Source of the DNA: Convolutriloba macropyga
Lineage: Eukaryota
NCBI RefSeq assembly: GCF_964194025.1
Contig: NC_134472.1
Span: 12,524,001-12,588,000 of the forward strand
Length of the DNA: 64,000 nucleotides
Direction: 5' to 3'
A model generated the notes under the pieces. The model made no database searches and was not told the origin of the DNA. It saw only the letters and a program-made list of their open reading frames with translations. The first letter of the stretch is position 1; every line of letters begins with the position of its first letter. This document shows positions 19,131-50,747 of the stretch, one piece after another. The position numbers were made by a program, and so were the translations under genes.

Positions 19131-19657
19131 TGATTCTTTATCTATACTTAGTTATTCGCACTCAATTTTTGGCCTCCTGCCAGCAATTATAGCATCAGTT
19201 CTGTTCGTCAGTGTTAAAACGTCTTCAGATCTTAGTGGATCCCTAAATTAAGCTTAATGTTAAATTTGCAATGATTTATTATGACTTTTCCAAATTTTGT
19301 AAAAATAATTCATTAGTTTTACAAATATTTGCAAAAAGGCCTGAATATTTTTGTCCCTAATTGTTAGTAGTTGGCGTTGTAGGGCAATTTCACCACACAT
19401 TTCGTTTACAAGCTGTAATTCAAACATTTTCAATTGAGTTAAGCAATCTCAGAGAAATTTTGCAAATTTGACCTTGCGAAGAGATCATTTGCATATTTCT
19501 ACAATTTTTGTTTTATCGAGCAAAATTTTGCAAATGTTTGCCAATTTAGCTTTTGTTTTGAACTAGGGATGTATTTTTTGTATTTTTCAGTCCACACAAG
19601 CAATCAGTATTTGCCTATCCTAACATTTAGCAACCAATAGTTATTGACAATTTTCCT

Positions 19658-25955: not shown

Positions 25956-26468
25956 TCACCCATAATAGTAAATACGATAAACGTAATAGTAATCGTCATC
26001 GTAATCGTCATCGAAACAGAAATCATAATCCCAGACGAAATAGTCATCGTGATAGTAGTAGTAATCCCAGAGATAGTCGTAATATTTCCGCAGAACGTAA
26101 TCACAGCCAGGGAAGTCGAAGTTCCTGTCGTAGTCATATTCAGTGAGATAATAATCTGGAAACTCATCAACATAAACGCCGCCCTCAACATCAGGTACAG
26201 GATCGACGTCTTTTGGACGATTCTTCCCATTCAAAAATGGACTCAAAATTGCAACCATTCCTACAACAACAATCAAACAACAGGTTGCAAATATTCCCAG
26301 GAGAAGCTTTGAAACTGGAAACTGCTTGATATTCCTTTTTTCTTCATTGGAAATTGCTGACTGGTTTGTGGGAGCGACAGCAGCGACTATCGATGTTTCT
26401 TGATCATTTTCTGACGCATTAATTGATTTTTTTGGAGAAGATTTATCATTACAGCCTGTCTTGCCCAT
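25956..26468 (-). CDS. Small single-TM protein with Asp/Tyr-rich C-terminus (DY family copy 2), ~170 aa
   Basis: First ATG at 26468 (MGKTGC...); TM LLLGIFATCCLIVVVGMVAIL; tail DYYYYHDDYFVWDYDFCFDDDYDDDYYY; paralogous to 2719-3213. Confidence 0.65.
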   Translation of the reverse strand: MGKTGCNDKSSPKKSINASENDQETSIVAAVAPTNQSAISNEEKRNIKQFPVSKLLLGIFATCCLIVVVGMVAILSPFLNGKNRPKDVDPVPDVEGGVYVDEFPDYYLTEYDYDRNFDFPGCDYVLRKYYDYLWDYYYYHDDYFVWDYDFCFDDDYDDDYYYVYRIYYYG

Positions 26469-27343
26469 GTTATTATCTCCAATTACCTTAGTGCCTGTTT
26501 TTAGAAAAAAGTTTCGTGGAAAAGCTGTTTTGTTGCATGTTGAGCTTTGCCTAGACAAAATTGCAAATGTATGTCAATATTCGCCGGGAAAATGATAAAA
26601 AGTAAAGCGCCGACAAAAGTAAGCAAAGTTACTTTGGCGACATCAACTTAAGCCACCCTTTGACGACAGATTCGTAATTTGCAGACAAAAAGAATTCTGA
26701 TGCGGGCTTTTATCAGATTATCTCTAAAAGTACGCAATTTTTATTCTATATCTTAGAATCATTGCTTGGATATGAACTTCAACAACATCTTGTCAATTCA
26801 AATGGGCCACTAAAGATTTGTGTATGGTACATAAATTCAAGTCAAAGACAGACAAATGTACTTTTGTTTTTTGATAATTATTTATAAAAGATTTTGTGAT
26901 CAGTTTTTGTTGGTTACCAGCATTTCTGCTATCGACCACCCTATTTTTTGCTGTATCCTTTTATTTCCCAGCAAAGAAAACCAAAAAAAAAGAAATTTTG
27001 CTGTCTCTATTTAAATATCAATTGATCAATTAATACTGCTTTTTTGAAAAAGATTCTTTAAGTGGATTTTTCTCAATTACAGTGCGCGTGAGTGCATTTA
27101 TTTTGTTGGTTACCGTTTTTCCAAAATTCATTGAAATATGATAACGCTCACTTGCTATATAGTACATAAAATTTTTCCTCCAAAACTTGGTTCAATGCTT
27201 TTGATACGTCAGAACTGAAACACATTTTTCCGTAATTTAAATCCCAATTAATGTATAATTGCATCCCATTCCTAGCCATTACGCCTGTAGTTAACCAGAT
27301 CCCAGTATTGTTTGTTTTGCTCCATGAATCCAAGCAATTGTAT

Positions 27344-28418
27344 CCCAGGTTTAGGTCCAGACCCAAATTGAGCTATGATCAGACTATGCAGACTGAAATG
27401 ACCTCTGATCAGACTTTCCAGACCGAAGTTACCTCTGATCAGACCTTCCAGACCAAAATGATCTCTGATCAGACTTTCCAGACCAAAATGTCTTCTGATC
27501 AGACCGAACCCAGACCACTGTCCAGACTATAGTGCGCTTATGATCAGACCCAAATTCGGACCATTGTCCAGACTATAAACAAACTATGATCAGACCATCT
27601 TCAGACCATGGTCCAGACTCAATTTCAGACCATTTCCCAGACCTTAATCAGACTATGATCAGACTCAAAATAGTCTCATCGGAGAAAGATTTTAATCATG
27701 AACAAATCTCTTAATTTTGCTATAATATATTCATTTCATAAAAACTGGTGTTTGCAGTATCAAAATCATCTAAGGAAAAGCCAATTCTGAAAATATTGCT
27801 AATGAAAACGAAACCTAAATGTTGAGAAAAAAATTGTTTACCATACCCCTTAGTTCATATTTCTGACTCAATGGATGAACTTAGACAGCTTTCCACAAGA
27901 AACGTCGTGGTCTTCAGTTAATCAAAGTTTCCTCTTGAGGGGACCAGCATTTGCTATCAGCTGGACTCCTTGTTTCTGATCAGAGTCATCGAATTTTAGA
28001 TGGGTCTTTGATCGGAACACTGCTGTATTGTTGCCTCTTGGCAGAGCCAACGTCCCTCAATAAAAAAAAACAAAAAAAATTGAAAAAATAATGCACTCGA
28101 AATCAGACCTTCCAGACTGAATTGACCTATGATCAGACCGAACCCAGACCTTGCTCAAGACTATAAAGACTGTGATCAGACCTTCCAGACCGAATTGACC
28201 TCTGATCGGACCAAACCCAGACCATGGTCCAGACTATGAAGACTATGAGCAGACCGTCCAGACCGAATTGACCTCTGATCAGACCAAAATCAGACCATTG
28301 TCCAGACTATTGTGCGCCCGAACCGCTTTCCAGACCCTGTAATTTTGGTCTGGGAACACAGGTTTGTGGGAACACAGGTCTGATCATAGCTCAATTTGGG
28401 TCTGGACCAAAACCTGGG
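27344..28418. mobile_element. Non-autonomous TIR DNA transposon (CCCAG termini, CMC/EnSpm-like) with ~30-bp internal tandem repeats
   Basis: ~41-bp TIR CCCAGGTTT(A/T)GGTCCAGACCCAAATTGAGCTATGATCAGAC with one mismatch; AT on both flanks; TGATCAGAC..TCCAGAC arrays at 27375-27665 and 28100-28310. Confidence 0.8.
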
Positions 28419-35678: not shown

Positions 35679-35878
35679 NNNNNNNNNNNNNNNNNNNNNN
35701 NNNNNNNNNNNNNNNNNNNNNNNNNNNNNNNNNNNNNNNNNNNNNNNNNNNNNNNNNNNNNNNNNNNNNNNNNNNNNNNNNNNNNNNNNNNNNNNNNNNN
35801 NNNNNNNNNNNNNNNNNNNNNNNNNNNNNNNNNNNNNNNNNNNNNNNNNNNNNNNNNNNNNNNNNNNNNNNNNNNNNN
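35679..35878. other. Assembly gap (200 N)
   Basis: Run of N. Confidence 1.
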
Positions 35879-36478
35879 CTCTGAGAAAACAATTGGGATG
35901 GATATCCTGTTCCGTCTGTCGAGCAAAGTACTAGAACATACAAATGAACAAAAAAATTCGCCATCGAGTAAAAAAAAAGTAAGCGCTTGTTGTTAAGGAA
36001 ATTGAACTATACCAGGGACGTCAAATATTTTTTACCTGAAAATTAACTCATCATCAAGAGGTGCGGAAAGTTTCATTTCTCAGCCTTTCCGTTTTCTGAT
36101 AGAACCAACGTACCGCTCCCAATACTCTATGAAGTCACTGAGAGAATCTGGAATCAATAAAAAACTGCATGGTGGTTTTCAATAGAAGCCAGAATCTCGG
36201 AGTGATTTCATTCTTGGTTGAAACACAAAGTTTTTGAGTTGAAAGGCTGGCACTGTATATAGGAATTTATGACATTGTAGAACCTGGCAATTGCAGAGAA
36301 TGTGGCAGGTTAAAATTTTAAAAGTTGCACGCAAGTGTTTCAAGCGTGCCTTATCATTTATTATGTTTCTACTTATTTATTTCTTTTATTTCTAAAAAAT
36401 CTCATTAATCTCAATAAAGGCAGGTTTTAAAAAAATATATAGCATCAAGCGTTTTCATTTGTGTACAGCAGTTATAAT

Positions 36479-37413
36479 TGTAGTATTGCTAATTGGATAA
36501 TTGCCGCCGCAATTACCGATACTACAGAGAGTATAATTATTTAACCGTCGACTTTGTGAACACTTTAGACTTAGTCTAAACTGACGGAATATTAAGAGAG
36601 AGCTATGCTGCGTGAATTTCGTTGAGTGAATGAATACATTATTCATAGCCAAATACTGCTGTGTATTATTTAATACACTATGCAGCGGTCCATACCGGCT
36701 GATTCACCACCGCTATTAATACGCGTAATACGTGAAGGATACTGAAGGCTATCCAGGCCGCTCTTCAGCACCAATTCTGAAACGAATATATGACTAAAGA
36801 CGAGTAGTAGTCGGCTCCACGAATGACCTAGGAATTGATTCGGAGCTAGTCATAGGTCTTGTGATTTTTAGTCGTGTTTGACTCAATTATAAACACGCAC
36901 GAGACTAGATTTTGCTGCTGAAGGAAATCAGTTCTCCAACTCAACCAGCGCAACTTAAGACGCTAAAAATCTAACCAAAAAAATTCTCTTCTCTCTCTTC
37001 CTCTCTCTGCTCTAAGAGCGAAACCACTATTTTCTCCGCTAAGCGGGACTATCTGCAGCAATTGTAAGTCTGCCAATTTTCTAACAAAAATAGAGTTAAA
37101 GTATTATTCATATCCGGCAGTAAGATGGATTCAATTTCTTGATTAAGATTAGATACCCCACCATATTTTTAAGTAGGAATTAACCCCCAATTGTGCTCTA
37201 TCATTTTTATCTATTTACTAATTAACCTTTGTATCTAACCAATTTTATTTTCTAGCAAATAACACATAGATTTGGAAATTAGCAAAGAACATTGTGAGCA
37301 TATTGTGAGACTTATTCTAGCACGCAATTAAGGTCGCTACAATAACATAGGTTTAGCTCTAGTGTGGTAATTAAGATCAAGCGAATAAAATACCTACCAC
37401 ATCAGAGTTAAAA
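36479..37413 (+). repeat. 5' LTR (~935 bp)
   Basis: Direct repeat of 53682-54614. Starts TGTAGTATTG and ends GAGTTAAAA; TATAAA at 36888; AATAAA at 37384. Confidence 0.97.
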
Positions 37414-37415
37414 AC

Positions 37416-37429
37416 TGGTGCGACGAGGA
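37416..37429 (+). promoter_or_regulatory. Primer binding site, similar to the tRNA-Ser(GCU) 3'-end complement
   Basis: TGGTGCGACGAGGA directly after the LTR. The canonical Ser(GCU) complement is TGGCGACGAGGA, so 2 extra nt are present here. Confidence 0.7.
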
Positions 37430-38199
37430 ATAAAGAACGTCGGTTGCTCACACATTTAGGAGCCTGGTGGACTTTTTGTGGCTAGTTTTCCAAACCAAAA
37501 ACCCAGAGGTCACACAGGTTCTATGGTAGGGCCACATACCGCGCTATCCCAGTACCTGTGTGAGATGTTCTAAGATTCTGAACGTCTCAATTACGACCGA
37601 CTAAAAGAGACGGGTTCTCCCCACAAAAGAACAGTCCACTGATTTAATAACTTTGAGCACCGGTTCTTTGCTTCTCAGACCCAAATTTTGACACTGTAGG
37701 TTGGTTTTTTAAGCGCACACGTGAGTACATAATTGTGTATCATAAAAAGACGTATTTGTACTCCCCCCCGCACAAAATTCGACAAGACCGGTCACATTAA
37801 TGTTACTTTTAGACTAAATAATTGTGTTCAACTTAACCAAATCTTTAATACTGTTAGCATAACGAACTGTACTATCCCCCCTAGTCCTATATACGAAATC
37901 ATACATCAATATCCATTAATCTAGCTCGCATTTATTGTCCGTAACTTAACCTTAGCGTGTCCTATACATCTTAACTTATAATTTATCATCTAAATAGTCG
38001 AACTTATCATCCTCCAAACCCATAGTATTGCAAAAACAAATTGACCCACATGCAAATAAGCCTAGTTTAACGTGGTTCTACCTCATTATACATGCATAGT
38101 GTACCTTTTAGTGTCTCTAAAAGTTAATAAATCACTCTGATAGCTACAAATAACGTTGTATTGTTAACCAAACACCCCAGCAGTCACTATAACGCCTCG

Positions 38200-39230
38200 A
38201 TTTAGCCCCCCAATTTCCAAAATTTCATAGTTTTGAGATAAGCAAAGTTGGTTTTATCAGGTTTTTAGCCCAATTTTTCCTATTTTTTGCCAAAATTAAC
38301 AGGAATTAGTAAGAATTCATCCAAAAATCAGCCAATTGTACACGATTTTTCACTAGAATTGTCCGGAATAAAGTGAAAACTTTTATTTTTCATCAGATTT
38401 TTGAAGAATTTAGCCCTGTTTGGTGTAGAAATTGTGTGTTTTTTGCCTAAATTCACCTCAGTTTTGACTAAATAATTGAGTTTTGGTGCCAAAATCCACT
38501 AAATTTCACCAAAATAAGCCCAGATTGTTCTCTAAAATTGCCAAATTAAGCTCATATATTCCTAAAATTCACTTATTTAGACCAAATTTTTTCAATTTTT
38601 ACCTAAAAAGTGCCCAATTTTAGAGCCTTTAGTCCTAAATTTGCCCATTTTTGACCAAAATATTTCAGTTTTTATCTGAAATTCATGCAAATTAATCGGT
38701 TTTAATCCAGAATTTGCCTGAAATTAACCAATAACTAACTATATGTAGTAAATTTTGACCACAATTTTTGCTTTTAGACACAAAATTGAAATAATTTTAA
38801 CCCGAAACTATTAGATTTGACCCAAATTATTGACATATTAGCCCAAAATTGTCAAAAAATTGTCAAGTTTAGACAAAATTTTCCCGATTTCACCCTGTTT
38901 CATTAAGAAAACACCCGCTTTTGGTAAAGAATTGTCAAAATTTGCCAAGATTTTACAATATTTTGTCTAAATTGATCTGGTAATTGATCAAAATTGACCC
39001 AAAATTGTCATTTTTTGCCCAAAATTGACCCAAAATTCACTCAGGTAATCCAAAAATTGCCCAGAACTTGTAAAAAATTACCCAAATTGAACCACAACAA
39101 GTGAAAAATATCTCATTTTGGATACAAATTAGCGGTACAAATCTCAAAATTGGCCTCAAAATTCCGAATAATTTCCTGAAATTCGCCAATAATCCTGAAG
39201 TATGACTAAATATTCGAACACAGAAACAAG
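38200..39230 (+). repeat. Degenerate ~11-bp periodic A/T-tract repeat in the element leader
   Basis: For example CAAAATTGACC CAAAATTGTCA TTTTTTGCC CAAAATTGACC CAAAATTCAC at ~38989-39040. Confidence 0.65.
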
Positions 39231-39515
39231 AAAATAGCTATTGAAGACTATTAACGCCTGTTTTAAGTTCATATACTAATAGAAATATAGCGTTTTGTCC
39301 AAAACTAACCACCAAAACGGCAAACTTAAAGGAAATAACACGATCTTTTCGTGCAACCTTTTTCAGTAAACGTTCCCTTTACTGGTATTTTGTAATATTT
39401 AAGTTTCTCCTTCGTTTTTCTGAGCCATATATTCGATTGCACTTGTTGGGTTACGTATAATTCTGCTACAAATTCACTTCAACAAATTTAAATTTCCAGT
39501 TTTTGCAAAAAGTTT

Positions 39516-39776
39516 ATGGAATACCTAATAGGAGACAAACAAATAAGTATTAAGGATAACTCAGCAGACTGTCGAGTGCTCAAATACGTCACTGACGTTG
39601 AACAATCATACGTGACAATAGTCTACCGTATCAAAAGAACAAAAACTGTTGGTCAAGTAACCATTTTCAAAGCTGAAAACACCTCTCTAGATTATTTGTT
39701 TAATAGACTTAATAAACGTGGCTCAATCATCGATTTACAATGTATGTACACTCTACCACACGCTTCCAATAAATGA
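39516..39776 (+). CDS. Accessory ORF U1, 86 aa, small-domain family A
   Basis: ATG start; aligns with U3/U4 (RVLKY...Q..VTIVYR...AEN...GSIIDL); its stop overlaps the next ATG (ATGA). Confidence 0.7.
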   Translation: MEYLIGDKQISIKDNSADCRVLKYVTDVEQSYVTIVYRIKRTKTVGQVTIFKAENTSLDYLFNRLNKRGSIIDLQCMYTLPHASNK

Positions 39777-40102
39777 GTGAAAGCAGCCAAAATCTGAAAT
39801 TAGTACCCTTGCCAGATAATAAACTCTATAAGTTTGAAGAAGTTTGCATGTTTTTACCCACACTACCTGACTTTGTTAAAGAAATAATCCAAAAAGAAAT
39901 AGTTTATTGTGTTCTAATAAGAAAATCTGATAGCGATAATCAAATCATTTCCTATCGAGTCAGAGTATATAGGCCAATACTAACAACCGCCTACTCTGAA
40001 AGCAATCAAAAACCAAAATTTAGTCGCGAAGGAAAATTTTTCTGGATAGAATTTCGACTAACCGAAGATGGTTGCTATCAACGAATGAACAAATGCCCAT
40101 AA
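39773..40102 (+). CDS. Accessory ORF U2, 109 aa, unknown function
   Basis: ATG overlaps the U1 stop; globular-looking composition. Confidence 0.65.
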   Translation: MSESSQNLKLVPLPDNKLYKFEEVCMFLPTLPDFVKEIIQKEIVYCVLIRKSDSDNQIISYRVRVYRPILTTAYSESNQKPKFSREGKFFWIEFRLTEDGCYQRMNKCP

Positions 40103-40190
40103 TTATTTAATCTCAAAAATTTTTGTATAAAACGAAGTGAAAAATAAAACAAAAACTCTTTTTTATTCTTATTGTCTTATATTCTAGCCT

Positions 40191-40415
40191 ATGGATATTA
40201 GTACAAAGCATCTAAATGTAACAATTTTGTACGACGATAAAGTTGCAAAAGTTAAAAGGTACACCTTAAATAACGATAAACAATCTCTGATTATTTATTA
40301 CAGGTTTGTTAACGATCCGCGCCTACACAGTTTTATAACATATGCAAGTTCTAATCCTGAATTTTACAAAACTTTGAAAGCTTTGCACACGCCCAATAGT
40401 TATATTGAACTCTAG
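40191..40415 (+). CDS. Accessory ORF U3, 74 aa, family A
   Basis: Clear paralog of U4: KV..Y.L...KQ...I / IT.A..NP.F...L.AL.TPNS..E. Confidence 0.8.
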   Translation: MDISTKHLNVTILYDDKVAKVKRYTLNNDKQSLIIYYRFVNDPRLHSFITYASSNPEFYKTLKALHTPNSYIEL

Positions 40416-40490
40416 TTCACTAAACTTAACTTAATTTTGTAACTAATACTGTCTAAAATTACATCTTTTTTAGAGCAAAAGTTGAATTCG

Positions 40491-40727
40491 ATGAATATTG
40501 ACGCTAACTTCTTGAATATTATAATCAAACTTGGTCATAATACAGGCAAAGTTACTAGTTATAAATTAGATAAGAAAAAGCAATATATGTACATTTTCAT
40601 TAATGTTGATAACATTCCAGGACTAGCTTGTTACATAACACATGCGGAAAACAACCCAAAGTTTAACCAAATTTTAGACGCACTTCGTACCCCAAATAGT
40701 GTTTTTGAGATAGGACCATTTGTTTAA
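40491..40727 (+). CDS. Accessory ORF U4, 78 aa, family A
   Basis: First ATG at 40491 (MNIDANFLN aligns with U3 MDISTKHLN); paralog of U3. Confidence 0.8.
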   Translation: MNIDANFLNIIIKLGHNTGKVTSYKLDKKKQYMYIFINVDNIPGLACYITHAENNPKFNQILDALRTPNSVFEIGPFV

Positions 40728-40885
40728 GCAAATTGTCTGAATATTTTCTAAATTCTATAAAAAATTGTTTGACCTTTTCATAGCTTCAAATTCCTTTGAT
40801 TAGACTTTTATATTGCTTCTTTCGTTTATAGTATCTTTTTCATATAAAAACTTAGTAATAATTCAACAAAAACCCTAAAACAAAA

Positions 40886-42178
40886 ATGGCTAACATCGTA
40901 GCATACCCAGACATTTCTCTTGAAAAATTTACAGGCTTAGACCCAAGTGAGGACGTAGCAGATTTTCTAAGTCTAATAGAGAGAAAAATAGAGTTTTCAT
41001 TAGGAGTTAGACCAGGACCAGGAGATGCACAAAATGCATATGACGCACGTAGAAAAGCATTATTTGGCTCAGTCTTAAGAGGACCAGCAGCCCAATGGTT
41101 CGATTCTTTGCCCGCAGCGGAACCATGGGATGATGTTAGGACAGGTTTCCTAAATAGATTCACAGACGAGAAAGACAAGTACAGAAAACGAATTGAGGTA
41201 GAAAACATTCGTAGACAACCAGATGAATTAATCAAAAGTTACGTACACAGACTAACAAAAGCAGTGGAAAAGGGATGGCCAGACCCATTCACAGATGCTC
41301 AAAGGCAAACTAAGTGTATGGAATTTTTTGTAAGAGGACTAACTCCTCCAGCACTTAAACAAAAAGCGCATCAATATTTGATAGAAACACCCAACGCAAC
41401 ATGGGAACAACTTAGAAATCAAGTTAGCACTAAAGACTTAAGTTTTGCAGTAAGTAGTGATTTCACAGGTACAGCATCTAGCAGCATAGACAACAAAATG
41501 GAGATAGATGGTATAAAAGACCAGCTCCAAGAATTAGCAAGTTTAATGAAAAACAACAGAATTAGCGCAGCCTACAACCCAAACGAGCCTAGAAATAAAC
41601 AAAATTACACACGATTTTGTAAATTTTGCAGAAAGTCAGGTCACACAATAGCGTATTGCTATGCAAACAGAGACTTTAAAGAACAAAACAGACAGCAACC
41701 ACAGCAAAGAGATAAGTTCAGAGATAACTATCAAAGCTATAGAGGACGTCGTCCAAGAGAAGATAGTTATGATAGAAATCAGAACCGATACAGACAAGAC
41801 ACTAGACCACATAACAGTTACTACAACCAAGACAACCGCAGACAATACTCTCCTCATCCTAGACCTGAGAACAATAACTTCAGAAATCGCTCACAAAGCT
41901 TTGAGAATCGAGATCGACGCTATAATAGCAGATCCAACGATCGTAGACCCCAGGATAATAGGAACTATTCCAGGGAACGACAATATGATCGAAACGATTC
42001 CCGAACAAGGTATCGTGAGTCAAGCAGTCCAAGACAGGACTATAGAAGAAGTAACAGTTCTAATCAGAATTCTAGAGATAACAGTAGAGACCGTAACTCA
42101 AACAGAGTTCAATTCAGAGAAAATAAAGTTAATGGATTCTTTGTGGACAATCAACAAGATGAAATTAATTTAAACTAG
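40886..42178 (+). CDS. gag: Gag (capsid + CCHC nucleocapsid + R/D/S-rich tail), 430 aa
   Basis: KFTG...DFL...LRGPAAQWF...W..VRTGFLNRF capsid pattern; CKFCRKSGHTIAYC zinc knuckle. Confidence 0.95.
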   Translation: MANIVAYPDISLEKFTGLDPSEDVADFLSLIERKIEFSLGVRPGPGDAQNAYDARRKALFGSVLRGPAAQWFDSLPAAEPWDDVRTGFLNRFTDEKDKYRKRIEVENIRRQPDELIKSYVHRLTKAVEKGWPDPFTDAQRQTKCMEFFVRGLTPPALKQKAHQYLIETPNATWEQLRNQVSTKDLSFAVSSDFTGTASSSIDNKMEIDGIKDQLQELASLMKNNRISAAYNPNEPRNKQNYTRFCKFCRKSGHTIAYCYANRDFKEQNRQQPQQRDKFRDNYQSYRGRRPREDSYDRNQNRYRQDTRPHNSYYNQDNRRQYSPHPRPENNNFRNRSQSFENRDRRYNSRSNDRRPQDNRNYSRERQYDRNDSRTRYRESSSPRQDYRRSNSSNQNSRDNSRDRNSNRVQFRENKVNGFFVDNQQDEINLN

Positions 42179-42246
42179 ACGAGTCTCCGTACAAAAATAA
42201 AAAAACAAACATTTTTATTAACTTGTACATTCACGCCGTCGGAGAC
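42169..42246 (+). promoter_or_regulatory. -1 programmed ribosomal frameshift signal
   Basis: T TTA AAC heptamer in the gag frame just before the TAG; the pol frame is -1 and opens right after TAA 42166-42168; downstream stem GTCTCCG/CGGAGAC. Confidence 0.85.
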
Positions 42247-45200
42247 AGTAATAAACATAACGGTTTCGAATCGCAGTTTCTAGTTGACACAGGAGCAACG
42301 TGTTCCCTAATAAACTTTGATTTCCTACAAGAACTTAAGTCACTGATTGATGTTAAACTAATTGAGTCAAAACAGAAAACAATTGCAGTCAACGGTGAAC
42401 GATTAAAATTGTTAGGCTACATTCATGTCCCAATCTCATTTGACATTGAAGGCAAATATTACACAGATCTCAAAACATGGGTTTCAGAGAAAAACGGTTG
42501 CGAATTAAACATCCTAGGAATGGACTTTTTGAATTTTGCAACAAAATCAATCGAGTTCACAACTCCAAAAATGAACTTAAAAATTTATCCAAACGTCTCA
42601 ATCACACTCTCAAAATATCAAACAAAAAGTTATCCTTTTGTAAGTAAATTTGAAAAAGTTGTACTTAACAGACCTTTCGAACTAGCACCGAAATCTAGCA
42701 GAGTACTAACAATTACACCATCAAACCAATTTTTCAAACAAGGAACATCATTTATAATTGACAATCGACTCCAGGACAAAGGTATTTACACATACAACGT
42801 CTATTGTGTAAGAAAAGAAAAAGAGTTGCCAATAATGCTAAATAACCCTGGTGATCGTAAAGTAACAATAGATAAAGGTTCAATAGGATACACTTTGGAA
42901 GAAATTTGTAAAAAAACACAAAAGTACACACTGATTGATAACGTCGCGTTCTTAGATGTCTTAACAGAAACTGAAACAGATTTCAATCACATCTTTCATG
43001 TCACTGAAAAAGTCGAAAACCCAATTCAGACTTTAGAAAATCCGAAATTAGACAAAACAGATATTAGACAAAAGTTGAAAAAAGCTCAAAAAAAGGTTCA
43101 AGAAAAAGAATTTGCAGACCACAATGAATTAGAAACAGATTTTAGTCAAGATCTAAAAGACTTAAAACCAAAAGCAACAATAGAAGGTGAAATTCGACCA
43201 CAACAAATACCACCAGAAAAACTGGAAATGTTTAGTAAATCAGACCGTGAGTTTCTCAAAAAATTTGACTTCAGTCAATCTGACATTAATGATGCACAAT
43301 TACTAGATCTCATGAAACTTCTTGCCAGAGACAAGGACGTCTACTCTCAGCACAAGTATGACGTTGGCAAAATAAAGCAAAAATTTCACGTAAAACTTCT
43401 ACCAAATTCAACCTTGACTAAGCAGAGACCATCACGAGTGCCATTGCACCATCAGGAAAAACTTGAAATTTTGCTAGATCAGCTCTGTAAAGCAGGAATA
43501 ATTCGAGAAATGGGAGACGACACCGAAATGGGATCGTCATTTATTAATCCCGTTATCATCCTTCCAAAGGGAAACATAGTGAAACTAGTAATAGACGCTA
43601 GGTATCTAAACTCAATAACAGACCTAAGTAAGTATTCATGGCCTCTAGAGCCAATAGGTTCTTTATTGACTAGACTAAACGGAAACTACTTCATTACAAG
43701 TGATTTATGTTCTGCATATAATCAAGTCCCTCTAACGGAGGAAACACAACAATTGACGAGTTTCGTAATAGGTTCAAAACAATACACGTTTCAACGTGGT
43801 TTTTACGGACTTTGCGGACTACCAAACTTTTTCAGTAGGATAATGACAATCCATTTTGCACCCTTAATAAAATCTAGACAAGCCGTAACTTATATTGATG
43901 ACACAATCATGCAAGCTCAGACAGCTGAAGAGATGTATGCAATCATAAAAAAGTACCATCTTTTGCTACGCAAAGCAGGACTGAAAGCTCAACCTGAGAA
44001 AACAAAATTCTTTTTGCGTAAAGTACAATTCTTAGGACATGTAGTAGGAAAAGACGGAATTCAACCAGTAAAGAAAAGGGTTGAAGATCTCAAAGCCTTA
44101 AAGACACCTGAGAATAAACGAGATGTAATGCGAGTCCTAGGTTGTTTAGGATTTTACAGCATGTACATAAAGAATCTGCATGTAGACAGTAAGCCATTTT
44201 ACGATCTTATAAAAACTGAAACCACTTTTCAATGGACAGATGAACACGAGAAGTTGTTCAAAGAAATTAAGGATCGTATAAGTGAAGATACAGTCTTAGC
44301 AATTCCCGACACCAGATATCCCTTCCATGTTCATGTAGATGCATCATCAATTGGTGTAGGTTCAATCTTAGTCCAAGAATTTCCTACCGGAAAACGGATA
44401 GTTTCATTTAATTCTCGAGTTTACACAAAAGATGAGCAAAAAATGAGTACAACAGCTAGAGAACTTTGTGGCGTAATTTCTGCTCTACAAACGTATGAGC
44501 ATTACATAATAGGTTCTCCACATCCAGTTTATCTCTACACAGACCACAAACCCCTACTGTATCTTTGGGGACGTAGAGGAAAATTATCTCATCGATTTTT
44601 CCGCTATCAACTTGTCATTTCACAATTCCAAAACTTAAAAATAATCTGGACAGAAGGCAAAAACCTAGCCTTTCCAGACATTCTAAGTAGAAACGTCTCG
44701 ATAAAAGACTTAGACAAGTATCAACTGAAACACAAAAAAATTCCGAAAGACATTAAATTCTACAACGAGTCAGGCAACGAAGAAAAATACTTCGTGTTGC
44801 ATGACAATGAAAAGGGACAGAAAAATGATTGCTACCCCATTCTAAAACAAACTTTTCAAGGAGTTAAAAAACTGAATTTTGAAAATGAACAATTTTTTGA
44901 GACAAACTATAAACCCAGTGATCGAATTTGTTCAACTTCGGACATATCAGAATCCTTCTTGAAAGGAAATGCAATAAATCACTATCGCGGAAAATTCCCA
45001 CTAAAAGAGCCAATCCTAAGCGAACAAGACGACAGTGAAAATTACTACTCTGATTTGTCTTTAGAATTTGATGATAATTTGGAAAAGGAAAAAGAGCACT
45101 TTGAAAAATTTTCTACAACAGAAGACGATCCTCTGTTAGATTCTGTTGAATTATCAGATTTAGAAATAGATGACATGAGTCTTGAGAACGAGGTTGAAGC

Positions 45201-47259
45201 AAGCAAATCAAGTTTTGATAGAATAGCAAGTGTTCGACTAGCAAAACCAATTTGTGAAAATAACGAAATTTCAGATGGAAAAGAACTAATCGAGAAATTA
45301 TCTAGTTTTGCTAAAGATATTGACTTGAACATAGCAGCAATCAGCCAGGAGCAATTCAAAGACCCAGTCATTCAGACTGTAAGACAACTTTTTGAATCAG
45401 GAAACAAAGATGAGAAAAATGTAAAATTTCGACAATCAAAAGCCATGAAAACGTACTTGAATAATTTTGAAAATCTTTGCCTAATTGGAAACATTTTATG
45501 TATTAAACAACCAACTGAAGATCCCAATATTCAAAACATCAAAATATGCGCACCATTATCCCTCTTCTTAAAAATTTTTGAATTAGCTCACCAAGATTCG
45601 CTTTCTGGACACTCTGGAAAAGATAAAACATTGTCAAGCATAAAACGCTTTTTCTATTGGCCAGGTTTATATAAATGGGTTTCTCACTTAATAGCGAATT
45701 GTTTAGACTGTCAAAAAAATAAACAAAAACGCAAAGACCTAAATGAAGCACCACTTGAAAAATGGACAGAAACTGTACCTTTCCCCTTCCACACGGTACA
45801 TATAGATCACAAAGGTCCAATAAATCCACCATCGAACGGAAATAAACATTGCCTAGTAGTAATTGATTCCTTTTCTCGTTACATCCAAGTTTACCCAGTT
45901 TCATCAACATCAGCAAGTGAAACAATATCAGCACTTGAGAAATTTTTTCTTACTTTTGGTATACCACAAAAACTTGTGTATGATAAAGGATCAGCCTTTA
46001 TGAACGAGGAGTTCACAAGTTGGACTCATGAACTTGGAATTACGCATGCTCCTAGAACAGCATACTCTCCCTGGACCAACGGAAAAGTTGAGATCCAAAA
46101 CAAACATCTTGGCACACATTTCCGAATCTTTTTTGAACAAGCTAATCGTAATTGGAGTGACTTAGCACCAAAGTTCGCGTTTGCTCATAACACAACAGCA
46201 AACACTAGTACAGGATTAACACCCTACGAAATCGTTTTTGGCCAAAAGCCCCAAATTCCCCTTTCTCTGAAATTAGGATTACTAAGGTCTTCCGACTTAA
46301 CTTGTAATTCAGAATTTTGTAAAGATTTACCACTCCACAAGCATTCAGAACAAAGTAGCAACAACGATCAAATAGATAAACTACTAAAACCAAAACTAAG
46401 TAGTTCATTGCTTGCTCGTGAAAATCAATTCAAACAAATTTACAAAACTGCATACAACAGAAGCCTAGAAGTTAACTCCAAAGCACATCAAAACAGAAAC
46501 AAACATAAACTAGGTAAGCCTTTAGACGTAGGACAACTAGTGTTAATGGAAAACCACTCATTCGAGGACGGAAAATCCAAAAAGTTACATGAACTAAGAT
46601 CAGGACCGTATGAAGTAACAAAAAAATTGACAAATGTAAATTACGAAATAGAACTTGTTTCAAACAAAACTGTCAAAAAAGTTGCCCATAGAAACCATCT
46701 AATTGAGTACTTCCCAATCGAAAACGCAATTTCAGAATTAGTTGTTGACTATGGTTTAAGGAATGAAAACTTCCAACCATTCTACAAAAATTTAATGAAT
46801 AAACAAGTTGAAAAACTTAATAAGCCAATGAATAAATTTTCCTTTCAACAACCCTATACTGAAACTGAATTTTTCCCAGTAGACAATTTCACAAGTAATT
46901 CGGATAACATACAAAATGAAAATAATCATGAAAAAACATTTGAAGATAACAATACCACAATAACAAAACCTGATTCGGGATTTCAAGAAGGTTTTTCAAC
47001 TACGTTTGTAGATAACACACAAACACCTGATAACCGTAGTCGTAGTAGAACTAGAAGTTCTACCCCATATCCCGAAACACGTATTCGTTTTGCAGATCCA
47101 CCTGACATTAGAGTCAGCCCTGTTAGAACCCAAACCCGTGTACAATCACCCGAAGCAAACCCAACTCCCTCGGATGATCAACGTTCATCTCGAATCGATC
47201 GTCGAATTTCGGGACGATTGAAAAAACTTACTGCTCGCTATCAAGCGGGATTTACTTAA
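42175..47259 (+). CDS. pol: Pol: protease, RT, RNase H, integrase with GPY/F module (expressed as Gag-Pol)
   Basis: FLVDTGA (PR); IDARYLN, DLCSAYNQV, YIDD at 43891 (RT); VDAS, REL, TDHKPL (RH); H..GH..C..C, HIDHKGP, YDKGS, NGKVE (IN); GPYEV. Confidence 0.97.
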   Translation, partial: LDESPYKNKKTNIFINLYIHAVGDSNKHNGFESQFLVDTGATCSLINFDFLQELKSLIDVKLIESKQKTIAVNGERLKLLGYIHVPISFDIEGKYYTDLKTWVSEKNGCELNILGMDFLNFATKSIEFTTPKMNLKIYPNVSITLSKYQTKSYPFVSKFEKVVLNRPFELAPKSSRVLTITPSNQFFKQGTSFIIDNRLQDKGIYTYNVYCVRKEKELPIMLNNPGDRKVTIDKGSIGYTLEEICKKTQKYTLIDNVAFLDVLTETETDFNHIFHVTEKVENPIQTLENPKLDKTDIRQKLKKAQKKVQEKEFADHNELETDFSQDLKDLKPKATIEGEIRPQQIPPEKLEMFSKSDREFLKKFDFSQSDINDAQLLDLMKLLARDKDVYSQHKYDVGKIKQKFHVKLLPNSTLTKQRPSRVPLHHQEKLEILLDQLCKAGIIREMGDDTEMGSSFINPVIILPKGNIVKLVIDARYLNSITDLSKYSWPLEPIGSLLTRLNGNYFITSDLCSAYNQVPLTEETQQLTSFVIGSKQYTFQRGFYGLCGLPNFFSRIMTIHFAPLIKSRQAVTYIDDTIMQAQTAEEMYAIIKKYHLLLRKAGLKAQPEKTKFFLRKVQFLGHVVGKDGIQPVKKRVEDLKALKTPENKRDVMRVLGCLGFYSMYIKNLHVDSKPFYDLIKTETTFQWTDEHEKLFKEIKDRISEDTVLAIPDTRYPFHVHVDASSIGVGSILVQEFPTGKRIVSFNSRVYTKDEQKMSTTARELCGVISALQTYEHYIIGSPHPVYLYTDHKPLLYLWGRRGKLSHRFFRYQLVISQFQNLKIIWTEGKNLAFPDILSRNVSIKDLDKYQLKHKKIPKDIKFYNESGNEEKYFVLHDNEKGQKNDCYPILKQTFQGVKKLNFENEQFFETNYKPSDRICSTSDISESFLKGNAINHYRGKFPLKEPILSEQDDSENYYSDLSLEFDDNLEKEKEHFEKFSTTEDDPLLDSVELSDLEIDDMSLENEVEASKSSFDRIASVRLAKPICENNEISDGKELIEKLSSFAKDIDLNIAAISQEQFKDPVIQTVRQLFESGNKDEKNVKFRQSKAMKTYLNNFENLCLIGNILCIKQPTEDPNIQNIKICAPLSLFLKIFELAHQDSLSGHSGKDKTLSSIKRFFYWPGLYKWVSHLIANCLDCQKNKQKRKDLNEAPLEKWTETVPFPFHTVHIDHKGPINPPSNGNKHCLVVIDSFSRYIQVYPVSSTSASETISALEKFFLTFGIPQKLVYDKGSAFMNEEFTSWTHELGITHAPRTAYSPWTNGKVEIQNKHLGTHFRIFFEQANRNWSDLAPKFAFAHNTTANTSTGLTPYEIVFGQKPQIPLSLKLGLLRSSDLTCNSEFCKDLPLHKHSEQSSNNDQIDKLLKPKLSSSLLARENQFKQIYKTAYNRSLEVNSKAHQNRNKHKLGKPLDVGQLVLMENHSFEDGKSKKLHELRSGPYEVTKKLTNVNYEIELVSNKTVKKVAHRNHLIEYFPIENAISELVVDYGLRNENFQPFYKNLMNKQVEKLNKPMNKFSFQQPYTETEFFPVDNFTSNSDNIQNENNHEKTFEDNNTTITKPDSGFQEGFSTTFVDNTQTPDNRSRSRTRSSTPYPETRIRFADPPDIRVSPVRTQTRVQSPEANPTPSDDQRSSRIDRRISGRLKKLTARYQAGFT

Positions 47260-47408
47260 ATCCTATCTTATATATTTACTTTAAAGGTTCAAATTATCGG
47301 AAAATTAACTTCCGAGACCTTTTCTCTTACTTCTTCCAGCCTTATTCTTAGCTTTCTGACACTAAAAAAACCAAAAACTCAGTCAATCACTAATAAAATA
47401 AAGTTATT

Positions 47409-49745
47409 ATGAAAAACAATAACTTCCTTTATAAATATTTAACTGTTTTGTTTGTCTTTACTGTTGTATCTTTTTGTAGACCCTCAGTTAGAAATGAGTT
47501 GGATGACATCTCCCCTACGTTAAAAGTTGTTCATTATGACTGTTCAAAAATGAAAGAAAGCAAAATGTATGCTTTAAATCAAGTAGCTCAATGCAACATT
47601 AAACCGGAAAATATTAAAGTTGCACCTGCAACGGTGACACTGTATCAAAGATCGTACAGAACAAAAGTAGAGGCAGTGATGTGTCGAGTAAAATCGCAAG
47701 CTTTAAGATGGCACTGTGGATTTTTATCGCACTCTTCTTTAGCATATGACCAAATTTCTCTTACAACTGACGTCATAGTAACGCCAGAAGAATGCAGACG
47801 TGCAAACAAAACAGGAAAAATAGCAATAACAGAGTACGATAGAACTTATAAGCTAGACATTTCAAATGAAGTTTTAAAACACCAATACACACACGGTGGT
47901 CTGAATGAGGACGACCACTTAGAAGATAACACAGATTGCTCTGCGTCAGGAGAAGTAAAACTTTATTCCTTTGAAACACAAATGCAAAGAGTTGAACTCG
48001 AAGTTGATCAGGAAACAAAATCAGTTTTTACCCCATTAGGATTAAAACTTCCATGCGAACTCAAGGAAGGAGGTTGTGAAACAACATCACTAGACCCCTT
48101 CGCTTACTCATGGGATGTGCCAGAAAATTGCATCGTTACAAAACTTTTCACTCAAGTTGCAAAAATGATAAAGTTCACAAACGAACCAGATCCACCACAA
48201 TACTACATCATAAGTACGCACGACATGCAAAATGATATTTATCGGTTGCAAAACAACATGAAAATAGACCACACGCGAGACATAAAACTGAGGATAAATA
48301 ATGAAAGAACTTATATTTGTGGAAAGCCTACTCCTTTGTTTACTACAAACTTTGATGATTTATTTGTTTCCTTCACAGGCGGATTTGATATGAATACGGG
48401 AAAAACCGTAATTTCGAAAAATAGTGTTAATTATTACAAAATGCAAGTCGGCACCGACAACAAAATAAGGGTGAACGGTTTTTACGAGACACCTAAAAAC
48501 GAGCTAGTTGGTAGCCAACATTTTGGAAATCATAAAAAAATTCTTGAAAACGTTGGAAAAGACACTATCGATTATGATGCTCATATGCGTATGAAAATTA
48601 ATTTCATGATGTATAAGGTCTATCGTGATTTGGAACAGTCTGACTTCCTTATTTTACAAAATATGTGCGAGCTCAGACGCACTCAAATCCAAATGATCAA
48701 TGCATTGTCTTACGAAAACAATAGATTGGCCGGATACATGTTAACCGGAAATCGTTCAATGTTTTTAGAAATTGAAGGTGTTATAGGTTTTCTATATCCG
48801 TGTCCAAAGAAAATTTCACCGCTTAAAGTACTTGATCGCTGTTACGACCGTATTCCGATCTTTTATGACGGAAAAACAATGTTTGTTAATCCTATTACGC
48901 GCCAAACATTTCCATTTGCAAATGAAATAGACTGTACAGATACTTTCAAAAATTTGTTTCAACTTGATTTAGATAATAATAATTCTTGGTATCAGTTGAT
49001 GCCGGCGCCAGTTCCTTTTAAACCGCCCGCTGTTTTTGCTCCACAACAAATTGGTTATATTCAAAAAATCCCTGATTATGATTCTCGTCGTGCAGGTATC
49101 TACACTGTAAACCAGTTGAAAGATTTTTGGAGAACAATTTTGCATAAATCAGCTTCTAATTCAGTTTTGAAAAAGATTTCTCGAACAGTGCTTCAAAATG
49201 CACACGTAGACAGTAGTCAACGCGATATCTATCGCGCCGCAGGTCTCAATAATCGACTATACTTAGATTCAATGTTGTCACCATCATTTTTCCTTGATCA
49301 CTTTAAGAGTACTTTTGGAGAAATTGGCTATTACATAGAAAGAGCCGGAATTTTATTTGCATGTTTCATGTTGATCAAGTTCTTGATCGATGTCGTAATT
49401 TTTATTTTAAGAGCTTTCGAGATACAAAAACTGTCGAAAAACACTATTGGTTTTTGGAAAACACTACTAGGAGCCTCGTACAATTTGTTTCTACTTTCCA
49501 TTGTCACATCAATTTATCAAACTCCTAAAAATGATGAAAATTCTGATAACAATACAAACAACGAACCAAACAGAAGTCGATACCTAAAGCACACACCAGA
49601 TAATAACATCTATCACGACAACAGTCAAATTGAATTGTCACCACTCACTGCACCTGAAGTAGTATCACCTCCTATTCAAGAAATACCACATCTTTATCCT
49701 AAAGTTCCTACTGAGCAAGAAGTAAATGCAATTGCTCCCCCATAA
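47409..49745 (+). CDS. env: Envelope glycoprotein, chuvirus/Monjiviricetes-like class III fusion protein, 778 aa
   Basis: Signal peptide; Cys pattern HYDC..YALNQV.QC..LYQ..V..CRV..CGFLSHSS..C....TG; C-terminal TM GILFACFMLIKFLIDVVIFIL; Pro-rich tail. Confidence 0.85.
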   Translation: MKNNNFLYKYLTVLFVFTVVSFCRPSVRNELDDISPTLKVVHYDCSKMKESKMYALNQVAQCNIKPENIKVAPATVTLYQRSYRTKVEAVMCRVKSQALRWHCGFLSHSSLAYDQISLTTDVIVTPEECRRANKTGKIAITEYDRTYKLDISNEVLKHQYTHGGLNEDDHLEDNTDCSASGEVKLYSFETQMQRVELEVDQETKSVFTPLGLKLPCELKEGGCETTSLDPFAYSWDVPENCIVTKLFTQVAKMIKFTNEPDPPQYYIISTHDMQNDIYRLQNNMKIDHTRDIKLRINNERTYICGKPTPLFTTNFDDLFVSFTGGFDMNTGKTVISKNSVNYYKMQVGTDNKIRVNGFYETPKNELVGSQHFGNHKKILENVGKDTIDYDAHMRMKINFMMYKVYRDLEQSDFLILQNMCELRRTQIQMINALSYENNRLAGYMLTGNRSMFLEIEGVIGFLYPCPKKISPLKVLDRCYDRIPIFYDGKTMFVNPITRQTFPFANEIDCTDTFKNLFQLDLDNNNSWYQLMPAPVPFKPPAVFAPQQIGYIQKIPDYDSRRAGIYTVNQLKDFWRTILHKSASNSVLKKISRTVLQNAHVDSSQRDIYRAAGLNNRLYLDSMLSPSFFLDHFKSTFGEIGYYIERAGILFACFMLIKFLIDVVIFILRAFEIQKLSKNTIGFWKTLLGASYNLFLLSIVTSIYQTPKNDENSDNNTNNEPNRSRYLKHTPDNNIYHDNSQIELSPLTAPEVVSPPIQEIPHLYPKVPTEQEVNAIAPP

Positions 49746-49839
49746 TTCAGTCATCCAATTTGTCTTTTTATACTTAATTAATCACATTTCACCAACTCTT
49801 ATTAGTTTAAACCTAACTGTTTCAGCATTATGATCTGAG

Positions 49840-50106
49840 ATGCAAAACTTTAATGATCTTTTTGTATCCGAGTACCATAAAGGTTTATTTATTAAGTTTC
49901 ACGAATTTTACGGACATATATATTACTCTTTTACACCCGCTTATGAAAATTTAGTGCATTTAAAAGTTAGCGCACCCAAATTTTCTGACTTAGTAGACAT
50001 ATTAATTTATTCAGACCACGAAAAATTTTATACTCTTAAGGAATTTTTACTTGATTGTGAATATGGTCTACTAGATTTAGGAAGCAACATCCACTTTCTT
50101 TTATAA
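49840..50106 (+). CDS. Accessory ORF D1, 88 aa, possibly a divergent small-domain family member
   Basis: ATG start; SDHEKFYTLKEFL resembles U3 SSNPEFYKTLKAL; TAA-a-ATG junction to D2. Confidence 0.65.
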   Translation: MQNFNDLFVSEYHKGLFIKFHEFYGHIYYSFTPAYENLVHLKVSAPKFSDLVDILIYSDHEKFYTLKEFLLDCEYGLLDLGSNIHFLL

Positions 50107-50107
50107 A

Positions 50108-50305
50108 ATGATGCACCTCGATCTTCAAAAGTCCCTTCGGGAACTAATTATTTTATTTGCTATTTTATACGATTTAACTAATTTTGCTTTATTTCTTAAA
50201 CATTTTAGAGAACCAAACGTATTTTCAGTACACTGCAAACACTTCAAGCTCCATCAGCACGAGAATAACGTATTGGAATGTACTTTTACTACCAAGGCAG
50301 TTTAG
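50108..50305 (+). CDS. Accessory ORF D2, 65 aa, hydrophobic N-half
   Basis: Fills the space between D1 and D3; its ATG is 1 nt after the D1 stop. Confidence 0.5.
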   Translation: MMHLDLQKSLRELIILFAILYDLTNFALFLKHFREPNVFSVHCKHFKLHQHENNVLECTFTTKAV

Positions 50306-50508
50306 TAAGACCTTATCAAATTAATCGATCCTTTACTATCCATTTTCCCTATCAAGTAACTCCCACTCTAGAAGTTTTGTTCGATTTTGTAGACTCTTGG
50401 GACGAAGGTTCAATAAAAATACCAGCTTTTTCCCCTTATTGGAACTTTTTTTTAATGCTTTCAGAGGAAAATTTAGACGAGCTTCCCATTGACATCTCCA
50501 ACTGGTAA
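50278..50508 (+). CDS. Accessory ORF D3, 76 aa, family B
   Basis: M.F....LVR...I.RSFT...P.LE...SP.WNFFL shared with D6; TAATG overlap with D4. Confidence 0.8.
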   Translation: MYFYYQGSLVRPYQINRSFTIHFPYQVTPTLEVLFDFVDSWDEGSIKIPAFSPYWNFFLMLSEENLDELPIDISNW

Positions 50509-50744
50509 TGATTAATATACAGAATAGATCCCTTACCCTTAAATTAAATAACATAAAATATATTATCCTTGGATTATCCACAACCCATAACTCATTTATT
50601 ATTTATATTCGACAACCCCACAGCATTTTAAATCACTATCTAACCTTAAAAATTAGTCACCCCCAAATACTCGAAATAGCCCTATTCCTATCCTTCTTTT
50701 CTAACGCAGAATTAACAATTAAGTATCCTATTCCTTTATTTTAA
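50508..50744 (+). CDS. Accessory ORF D4, 78 aa, possibly small-domain family
   Basis: TAATG start; NSFIIYIR...SHPQI resembles U3 QSLIIYYR...SNPEF. Confidence 0.7.
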   Translation: MINIQNRSLTLKLNNIKYIILGLSTTHNSFIIYIRQPHSILNHYLTLKISHPQILEIALFLSFFSNAELTIKYPIPLF

Positions 50745-50747
50745 GTC

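Follow-up and report, generated by a model that had tools for sequence, protein, structure and literature searches.

An open reading frame (ORF) encoding 778 amino acids in the genome of Convolutriloba macropyga raises two questions: what kind of membrane protein is it, and what does it do beside the genes of a retrotransposon? The ORF occupies positions 47409 to 49745 (forward strand) of a 64-kb stretch of assembly GCF_964194025.1 (contig NC_134472.1, 12,524,001 to 12,588,000), which we call the window and whose positions serve as coordinates throughout. An initial annotation, made from the letters alone, had proposed a chuvirus-like class III fusogen serving as the env gene of a Gypsy element, independently acquired by that lineage. 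We consider it probable that the locus is a complex env-bearing Ty3/gypsy endogenous virus, whose Env protein would fuse membranes and recruit the endosomal sorting complex required for transport (ESCRT), and whose additional ORFs would be accessory genes.

Each of the motifs that had been picked out by eye was located in the ORF: YDC at residues 43-45, CGFLSHSS (the CGxxSHxS pattern) at 103-110, CRRANKTG (CxxxxxTG) at 129-136, LTAP at 746-749, and LYPKV at 762-766, as well as the C-terminal transmembrane (TM) segment. The one strong TM lies near residues 645-673 (19-residue Kyte-Doolittle windows starting at 645-655, peak 2.75), and a weaker hydrophobic helix follows at about 684-702 (1.39). 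The single Pfam match of Env was to PF24664, Monjiviricetes_fusion (E 2e-43; 148.6 bits against a cut-off of 27). In an alignment of 50 rows, comprising the window Env and 49 of the 120 relatives listed, every row matched PF24664 and no other Pfam family, and 14 of the 16 Env cysteines were kept in at least 92% of the rows covering them. The TG of CxxxxxTG varies among these relatives; the proposed signal peptide is plausible by hydrophobicity only, the N terminus having a hydrophobic core with 11-residue Kyte-Doolittle values of up to 2.73. Sequence searches of the PDB with Env or its 50-row profile returned no matches.

An AlphaFold2 model of Env contains two beta-rich N-terminal domains, a 48-residue central helix (residues 389-436), a beta crown, and C-terminal helices. 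All 40 of the 40 rows listed by Foldseek against the PDB were herpesvirus gB, with a best E of 3e-13 at about 10% identity. Against BFVD, the best rows were chu-, xinmo-, and qin-related glycoproteins (E 3e-29 to 5e-26, 14-17% identity), and herpes gB stood lower (E 1e-15). A wide structure search also placed gB first (Z 8.3, root mean square deviation [rmsd] 26.8, 372 residues aligned), along with its domain IV (Z 7.9, rmsd 3.8, 155 aligned) and domain II (Z 6.7, rmsd 3.0, 82 aligned); lower in the list, the rabies G PH/fusion domain and thogoto/Bourbon, Chandipura, and GP64 chains appeared among generic helices. Between them, the model and the sequence present the PH-like and fusion domains, the central helix, the domain IV crown, and the PF24664 match of a gB-type class III protein, and we regard the assignment of Env to this class, on the predicted fold, as well supported. 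The comparison with gB, chuvirus G, rhabdovirus G, and gp64 that had been suggested as a check yielded class III chains, and the outcome that would have spoken against the proposal, a best match to a class I, class II, or nonviral protein, did not appear: gB and the chu-, xinmo-, and qin-related glycoproteins lead. Class I and class II fusogens were rejected on the same two lists. "Chuvirus-like" holds in a broad sense; in the strict sense of a chuvirus donor it is not well supported, the xinmo- and qin-related rows scoring alike and interleaving with the chu-related ones. Because the three groups mix at 14-17% identity, no donor virus family can be named.

The env ORF begins 149 nt past pol, within a complete long terminal repeat (LTR) element of Ty3/gypsy type that measures 18,136 bp from LTR to LTR (36479-54614). 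Its core features are listed below, where letters denote more distant env families, sampled at 12 loci of the same genome together with one 13-kb metagenome contig (L005).

36475..36478 (+), left copy of the 4-bp target-site duplication TAAT; the right copy is at 54615-54618
36479..37413 (+), 5' LTR with ends TG...AA, identified by its match to the 3' LTR
37416..37427 (+), primer-binding-site-like sequence, starting TGG, 2 nt past the LTR; closely similar in families A, B, F, and G
37428..39515 (+), long leader without ATG-initiated ORFs of at least 25 aa
40886..42178 (+), gag, 430 aa, with capsid match PF03732 (E 1e-7), a CX2CX4HX4C knuckle, and an R/N/D-rich tail
42169..42175 (+), TTTAAAC heptamer for -1 frameshifting, directly ahead of the gag stop
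42169..47259 (+), pro-pol: protease (DTG at 42286), reverse transcriptase (RT), RNase H, integrase, and a C-terminal SH3-like module
47409..49745 (+), env, 778 aa, predicted gB-type class III fusogen with a late-domain-like tail, from PF24664, the predicted fold, and its relatives
53668..53681 (+), polypurine-tract-like sequence before the 3' LTR; its last 10 nt are the same in families A and B
53682..54614 (+), 3' LTR

The two LTRs are identical in 929 of 936 columns (99.3%). The pol frame lies at -1 relative to gag and is open from 42169; the heptamer, the gag stop, and a downstream GTCTCCG are conserved in families A and B and in contig L005. Pfam matches of gag and pol were Retrotrans_gag, RT_RNaseH, Integrase_H2C2, and Integrase_p58_C, and the N terminus of Gag carries no glycine. 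Among solved structures, RT matched Ty3 best (E 1e-36), followed by foamy virus (1e-23), a caulimovirus-type polyprotein (1e-19), and an MLV-type enzyme (1e-15). Paired LTRs, target-site duplication, primer-binding site, polypurine tract, the order protease-RT-RNase H-integrase, and RT and Gag nearest to Ty3/gypsy models together place the element in Ty3/gypsy (Metaviridae). BEL/Pao elements carry protease and Gag of the Peptidase_A17 and DUF1759 families. At E 0.1 neither family turned up when gag and pol were compared with Pfam, and a BEL/Pao (Belpaoviridae) identity was rejected for lack of any such family. The initial annotation's central proposal, a class III fusogen as env of a Gypsy element, is thus borne out by PF24664, the gB- and chu-type folds, and the Ty3/gypsy pol.

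Inspection by eye located pyrimidine-rich AG acceptor-like sites before env (47338-47339) and before the last ORF of the element (52143-52144), and, inside the LTR, a donor-like GTAAGT (37064-37069) and an acceptor-like site (37254-37255); these sites suggest spliced subgenomic RNAs. Contigs from four sequencing runs of one study, none of them an RNA run, cover the element, and among 15 of 125 joints listed none was GT-AG. An assembly gap (N run) lies at about 35680-35880, about 600 nt upstream of the 5' LTR.

The element is young, recently inserted, multi-copy, and under purifying selection. A 601-nt env probe gave 106 candidates in the 1.18-Gb genome, the 40 that were scored being 97-100% identical; a 156-aa Env segment gave 2248, and of the 150 scored, 69 were at 81-100% and 81 at 60-63% identity. 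Ten of the top copies were fetched, each ORF being covered by 9 or 10 of them. The 4-bp target-site duplication was present in all six further copies having both outer ends, and env was free of gaps and stops in 6 of the 10. Variants in env common to the copies were synonymous at eight sites and nonsynonymous at four, and against families A and B the proportion of nonsynonymous differences (pN, 0.33-0.34) was below that of synonymous ones (pS, 0.69-0.72). Two rearranged loci were encountered. In one copy (L013, G000:C13) the whole leader is missing, and the 5' LTR and a variant primer-binding site join the end of a small ORF, U109, with the target-site duplication still present; in a family A copy (L045-L046, G000:C6:71.959-71.963 Mb) the 3' part of env is tandemly triplicated in 1.77-kb units.

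The tail of Env carries late-domain-like strings. PT/SAP motifs bind TSG101 and YPXnL motifs bind ALIX, and both have been described in Gag and other structural proteins, according to the relevant part of PMC8402826. From 266 Env relatives we took the 104 with a TM and a tail of 25 to 260 aa and grouped them into 38 clusters at 60% identity, with shuffled tails as the null. YPx followed by a hydrophobic residue occurred in 26 of the 38 clusters (null, 2.4), the narrower [LI]YPx[LI] in 14 (null, 0.15), P[TS]AP in 9 (null, 0.23), and [TS]AP in 19 (null, 2.05); an LYP-type motif and [TS]AP were found in the same tail in 12 clusters (null, 0.1). When the residue after the tyrosine was not proline, Yxx-hydrophobic stood at chance (19 clusters; null, 16.8), and PPxY was not enriched in these tails (4 clusters; null, 1.6). 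Late-domain-like motifs were present in six of seven Env tails and none of seven Pol tails. Apart from an N-terminal YPDIxL in three of the families and a single PTAP in family E, the Gags had hardly any such motif. The strings of the Env tail had been called weak evidence in the initial annotation, and the enrichment across 38 tail clusters is stronger than was supposed there. We hold with moderate confidence that the Env tail may recruit ESCRT; a literature search brought up no errantivirus whose Env tail had been described as carrying late domains.

Twelve further ORFs lie in the sense direction: four before gag, and after env five of 76-88 aa, a tandem RING protein, a 34-aa membrane peptide, and ORF323. 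They are listed with their nearest homologues in sister families and their state in the fetched copies; dN and dS denote nonsynonymous and synonymous divergence.

39516..39776 (+), a1, 86 aa, family alpha; matched by an ORF of family B at phmmer E 1e-4; open in each of 9 copies
39773..40102 (+), U109, 109 aa, in ATGA overlap with a1; against a diverged copy dS 0.23, dN 0.06
40191..40415 (+), a2, 74 aa, family alpha; E 2e-15 to family A; intact in 10 of 10 copies
40491..40727 (+), a3, 78 aa, family alpha; E 5e-13 to family B; intact in 10 of 10 copies
49840..50106 (+), g1, 88 aa; E 1e-12 to family A and 4e-7 to family B; intact in 7 of 10 copies
50278..50508 (+), b1, 76 aa, family beta; intact in 7 of 10 copies
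50508..50744 (+), a4, 78 aa, family alpha, in TAATG stop-start overlap with b1; E 2e-10 to family B; 10 of 10 copies
50748..50984 (+), b2, 78 aa, family beta; E 2e-20 to family A; 9 of 10 copies
50987..51253 (+), b3, 88 aa, family beta; 9 of 10 copies
51255..51689 (+), tandem RING-like protein of 144 aa that starts MGNCFS and has two units of C2H2C4 pattern; intact in 5 of 10 copies
51693..51797 (+), predicted hydrophobic membrane peptide, 34 aa (19-residue Kyte-Doolittle 2.84); open in 10 of 10 copies
52193..53164 (+), ORF323: disordered N terminus, duplicated small beta-barrel, and long coiled coil in the model; homologues in other families

Sense ORFs of at least 70 aa number four before gag and six after env, where null means are 0.06 and 0.24 and none of 1000 resamples reached the observed counts; the opposite strand of the two regions has zero and one. 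Clear homologues in sister families were found for 10 of the 12. For the 34-aa peptide none was detected in the other families, where different short hydrophobic ORFs lie close by. For U109 the homology extends over only 29 codons, aligned locally with an ORF of family B, and most copies of U109 differ from the window by compensating 1-nt gaps. Families alpha and beta are paralogue groups whose paralogues and orthologues stay open at 25-45% identity. In all cross-family pairs pN was below pS, by a narrow margin in some, such as that of g1 with family B; comparison with a moderately diverged copy gave dN/dS of about 0.15-0.5 (for a1, dS 0.19 and dN 0.03). Six ORFs between 50278 and 51797 are chained by gaps of -1, 3, 2, 1, and 3 nt, which suggests coupled translation; stop-start coupling of this kind is a mechanism of other viruses.

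Neither alpha nor beta had a Pfam, PHROG, PDB-sequence, or Atlas match. Family beta has 104 database relatives, unnamed and without Pfam domains, 103 of them from ENA assemblies. Profile comparisons gave E 0.76 for alpha with beta, E 0.015 for alpha with g1, and E 0.006 (probability 6%) for alpha with the small ORFs of families E, F, and G; a single superfamily uniting them is unsupported by these scores. In the RING protein, both C-C-H-H-C-C-C-C units are invariant in six of six aligned proteins, four of which start with MG, and Gly2 is present in 9 of 10 copies; the MGNCFS start fits the myristoylation pattern. Its weak profile matches are the RINGs of RNF4, TRIM32, Mdm2, and BRCA1 (E 9e-5 to 0.05); one homologue passed the zf-C3HC4_3 cut-off and the window protein missed it. 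Family B has three RING paralogues. Families A, B, and E have homologues of ORF323, and contig L005 has two. Its model has a confident core (pLDDT about 90), and the Foldseek list is led, weakly, by PWWP and Tudor chains (E 0.06-0.3); the wide structure search returned coiled coils only and barely probed the barrel part. The ORFs that follow env in families F and G may be linked to ORF323, but the signs are no more than suggestive: hhalign gave E 0.004 (probability 9%), and a hidden Markov model match did no better than reversed decoys.

How long env has accompanied this pol can be gauged from the more distant families. A related gag and pol precede env at 11 of the 12 distant loci; one family A locus (L047-L049) has env without gag or pol matches. 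The Env proteins of sister families A and B are only about 50% identical to that of the window. Eight elements were placed on two unrooted trees without an outgroup, one from 190 aa of RT and one from about 416 aa of Env; the branching order is identical in both, even where identity falls to 42% in RT and 19-21% in Env. This congruence across the clade implies that any capture is old, and Env appears to have been co-inherited with the pol lineage for a long time, making a recent capture unlikely. The layout of the more distant elements varies: in families E, F, and G (L053, L059, L062, L065, L068), 2-5.5 kb with related ORFs of 100-136 aa separate pol from env, so that a filter of 1 kb on the pol-env gap would overlook them, and in families F and G an ORF of 550-600 aa lies past env.

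We propose the following life cycle. Gag and Gag-Pol, the latter by -1 frameshifting, would build Ty3-like capsids, and Env, made from a subgenomic RNA, would reach a membrane. After budding, Env would fuse the particle with a neighboring cell, and the element would thereby reach other cell types, such as germline or stem cells. That Env is a membrane fusogen letting the element pass between cells is the part we put forward with high confidence. With less weight, the PTAP/PSAP- and LYPxL-type motifs may recruit TSG101 and ALIX, so that the Env tail would supply a late-domain function mostly missing from Gag; the RING protein may be a membrane-anchored ubiquitin ligase or a matrix-like adaptor; and the arrays of small proteins may be host-interaction proteins diversified by tandem duplication. 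Our confidence in the roles suggested for the RING, the barrel, and the small proteins is low. A bolder version, which we offer tentatively and rate as doubtful, makes the 14-21 kb clade the invertebrate counterpart of complex retroviruses: the Env tail rather than Gag would bear the ESCRT late domains, the myristoylated tandem RING would be a matrix-like adaptor or anti-defense ligase, and the stop-start-coupled arrays would counter host defenses.

Two alternatives concern the origin of the genes. That this Gypsy lineage recently and independently captured a chuvirus glycoprotein, as initially proposed, would agree with the best predicted-structure matches, which are chu-related (E 1e-28 against 1e-15 for herpes gB), and more than one acquisition is possible given that several Gypsy lineages yield env-bearing elements in the survey of Chary and Hayashi (PMC13524379). 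We nevertheless think it quite improbable: identity to any viral G is 14-17%, with xinmo- and qin-related proteins scoring alike; Env diverges in step with RT to a depth equal to the viral distance; and among 14 pattern matches in viral contigs none was a relative. The extra ORFs, for their part, might be captured host debris or chance frames without a role, as small families lacking Pfam, PHROG, or PDB matches and varying in number and position between families could be taken to indicate. This is very hard to reconcile with a strand-biased ORF density far above the null, with homologues that remain open at 25-45% identity despite saturated dS, with dN well below dS in the unsaturated comparison, and with the stop-start chain of six ORFs, and we give it very little credence.

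A third alternative leaves the genes as they are and changes their use: the element would move inside cells, Env being kept for cell-cell transfer without free particles or for a superinfection block, and the tail motifs would be sorting signals for Yxx-hydrophobic endocytosis or ESCRT-dependent turnover. YPxL also fits the Yxx-hydrophobic pattern, and some families have lost the tail motifs. Transfer between cells by small accessory membrane proteins is known from the Drosophila MDG1 group, as part of PMC11952523 describes, and the 34-aa membrane peptide could be set beside it. Only the proline form is enriched, however, and LYP-type and [TS]AP motifs co-occur far beyond the null; conservation of every ectodomain cysteine speaks against another job for Env. 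We judge this alternative unlikely and prefer an env-bearing endogenous virus that leaves and enters cells, against which several points nonetheless count. The Env model is middling (pLDDT 66.9, pTM 0.33), and its whole-chain TM-score with gB is about 0.2. The window strings LTAP and LYPKV are noncanonical, family E has its PTAP in Gag, and family G lacks any motif in its Env tail; because the 38 clusters share ancestry, they are less independent than the shuffle test assumes. Shared ancestry and noncanonical window strings make the tail motifs a good lead, not proof. Saturated dS between families makes the cross-family ratios rough. Half of the 10 copies have a broken RING ORF, and families E, F, and G as well as one copy of family A lack it altogether; hence some lineages, at least, can do without it. 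Fusion, release of particles, and expression, finally, are predictions from the sequence.

The rest of the window has its own features. Two related open frames on the reverse strand, 2719-3231 (-) and 25956-26573 (-) (28% identity, E 4e-8), each encode a hydrophobic segment and, after it, a long tail rich in Asp and Tyr; they are probably lineage-specific host membrane proteins. Repeats comprise three 1.24-kb tandem units at 20100-23800, 30- and 73-nt repeats at 27363-28320, a 2-kb direct repeat at 55573-58418, and short inverted-repeat elements resembling miniature inverted-repeat transposable elements at 13010-13671 and 18714-19131. At 7519-10095 (+) lies what we take to be a decayed non-LTR element with endonuclease and RT fragments. 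Outside the window, a family G copy is flanked by what is presumably a set of lipase-like and P-loop ORFs (L067, reverse strand 4945-7350), and a family E copy by what we take to be remnants of a family B DNA polymerase (L052, 20-933). Host mitochondrial COX1 (L050, G000:C315) reads TGA as Trp, AGA as Ser, and ATA as Met at conserved positions (NCBI table 5), and COX1 fragments also occur on contig C13. Going by the established code tables, such a reading rules out cnidarians, ctenophores, sponges, tunicates, vertebrates, echinoderms, and rhabditophoran flatworms as hosts and leaves protostomes, xenacoelomorphs, and lancelets.

Among known systems, a chuvirus-like glycoprotein on an LTR element has a precedent in Anakin, mosquito BEL/Pao elements that Dezordi et al. 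reportedly described in 2020. Anakin and other BEL/Pao elements share with the window element an LTR structure and a chuvirus-like class III glycoprotein; theirs are BEL/Pao elements in mosquitoes, whereas here pol is of Ty3/gypsy type. The pertinent passages of Dezordi 2023 (PMC10084718) report Gypsy fragments beside Jingchuvirales glycoproteins, with no clear capture. The Env itself resembles the fusion glycoproteins of Monjiviricetes (Jingchuvirales, Xinmoviridae) and herpesvirus gB in its PF24664 score over the cut-off, domain order, and fold. It differs from them in being encoded by a retroelement, in its 14-17% identity to viral proteins and about 10% to gB, and in its long disordered tail with PTAP/LYPxL-type motifs.

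The arenavirus Z protein is a myristoylated RING matrix protein. The window RING is likewise small with an MG start, an analogy and not a membership; it differs in having two RING-like units in tandem and no late domain that we could see, and no arenavirus Z sequence was among the 48 rows listed for it. It also resembles Mdm2-type C2H2C4 RING ligases, Mdm2 being one of its weak profile matches. Extra ORFs in smaller numbers have been described elsewhere: MDG1-group elements have two small ORFs, sORF1 and sORF2 (PMC11952523), and bdelloid rotifer elements have single ORF3 types (PMC5408684), as far as the relevant sections of both papers go. Like those, the window element has selected small ORFs before gag or ORFs after pol, including one small membrane protein; theirs number one or two in mostly env-less elements, whereas here there are twelve plus env, with paralogous arrays, a tandem RING, and a Tudor-like protein. 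A literature search, with subscription journals and Repbase outside its reach, found no comparable gene-rich Gypsy element.

The closest relatives in kind are the gB-type errantiviruses. In the sections we draw on, Chary and Hayashi (eLife 14:RP108449, PMC13524379) report 221 Ty3/gypsy elements with gB-type env (ENV_HSV) among 1512 elements, from cnidarians, ctenophores, tunicates, rotifers, bryozoans, nematodes, flatworms, and arthropods, and note that the glycoprotein resembles Chuviridae envelope genes; Xenacoelomorpha were not part of that survey. The premise of the initial annotation that errantivirus env is baculovirus F-related is thus outdated, gB-type env beside gypsy pol having been described there, and a chuvirus-like env on a Gypsy pol is not new. 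With an intact gag, a Ty3/gypsy pol, and a gB-type env in one multi-copy LTR element, the window element belongs with this group, sharing, as far as those sections go, the order gag-pol-env, a gB-type ectodomain between signal peptide and TM in an env that follows pol, multiple copies, and no need for a furin site. A search of the element table of that paper for the primer-binding-site 11-mers found none. It is also larger: 18.1 kb here and 14-21 kb across five sister families, against 9.3-13.0 kb in the 16 of the first 30 ENV_HSV rows with LTR coordinates, although longer LTR elements may escape that search. The discussion in PMC13524379 states the cell exit and entry of gB-type errantiviruses as unknown, and a word search of the main text found none of accessory, RING, small ORF, late domain, ESCRT, cytoplasmic, or budding. 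For exit and entry the present clade gives testable handles, in conserved TSG101/ALIX-type motifs of the Env tail and a young, abundant family. Twelve selected accessory genes, if they are what they appear to be, would raise the upper limit of Metaviridae complexity and supply new candidate antagonists of invertebrate transposon defense. It is these twelve extra ORFs, most of them conserved, and the Env-tail motifs that go beyond the systems described so far, and both look undescribed.

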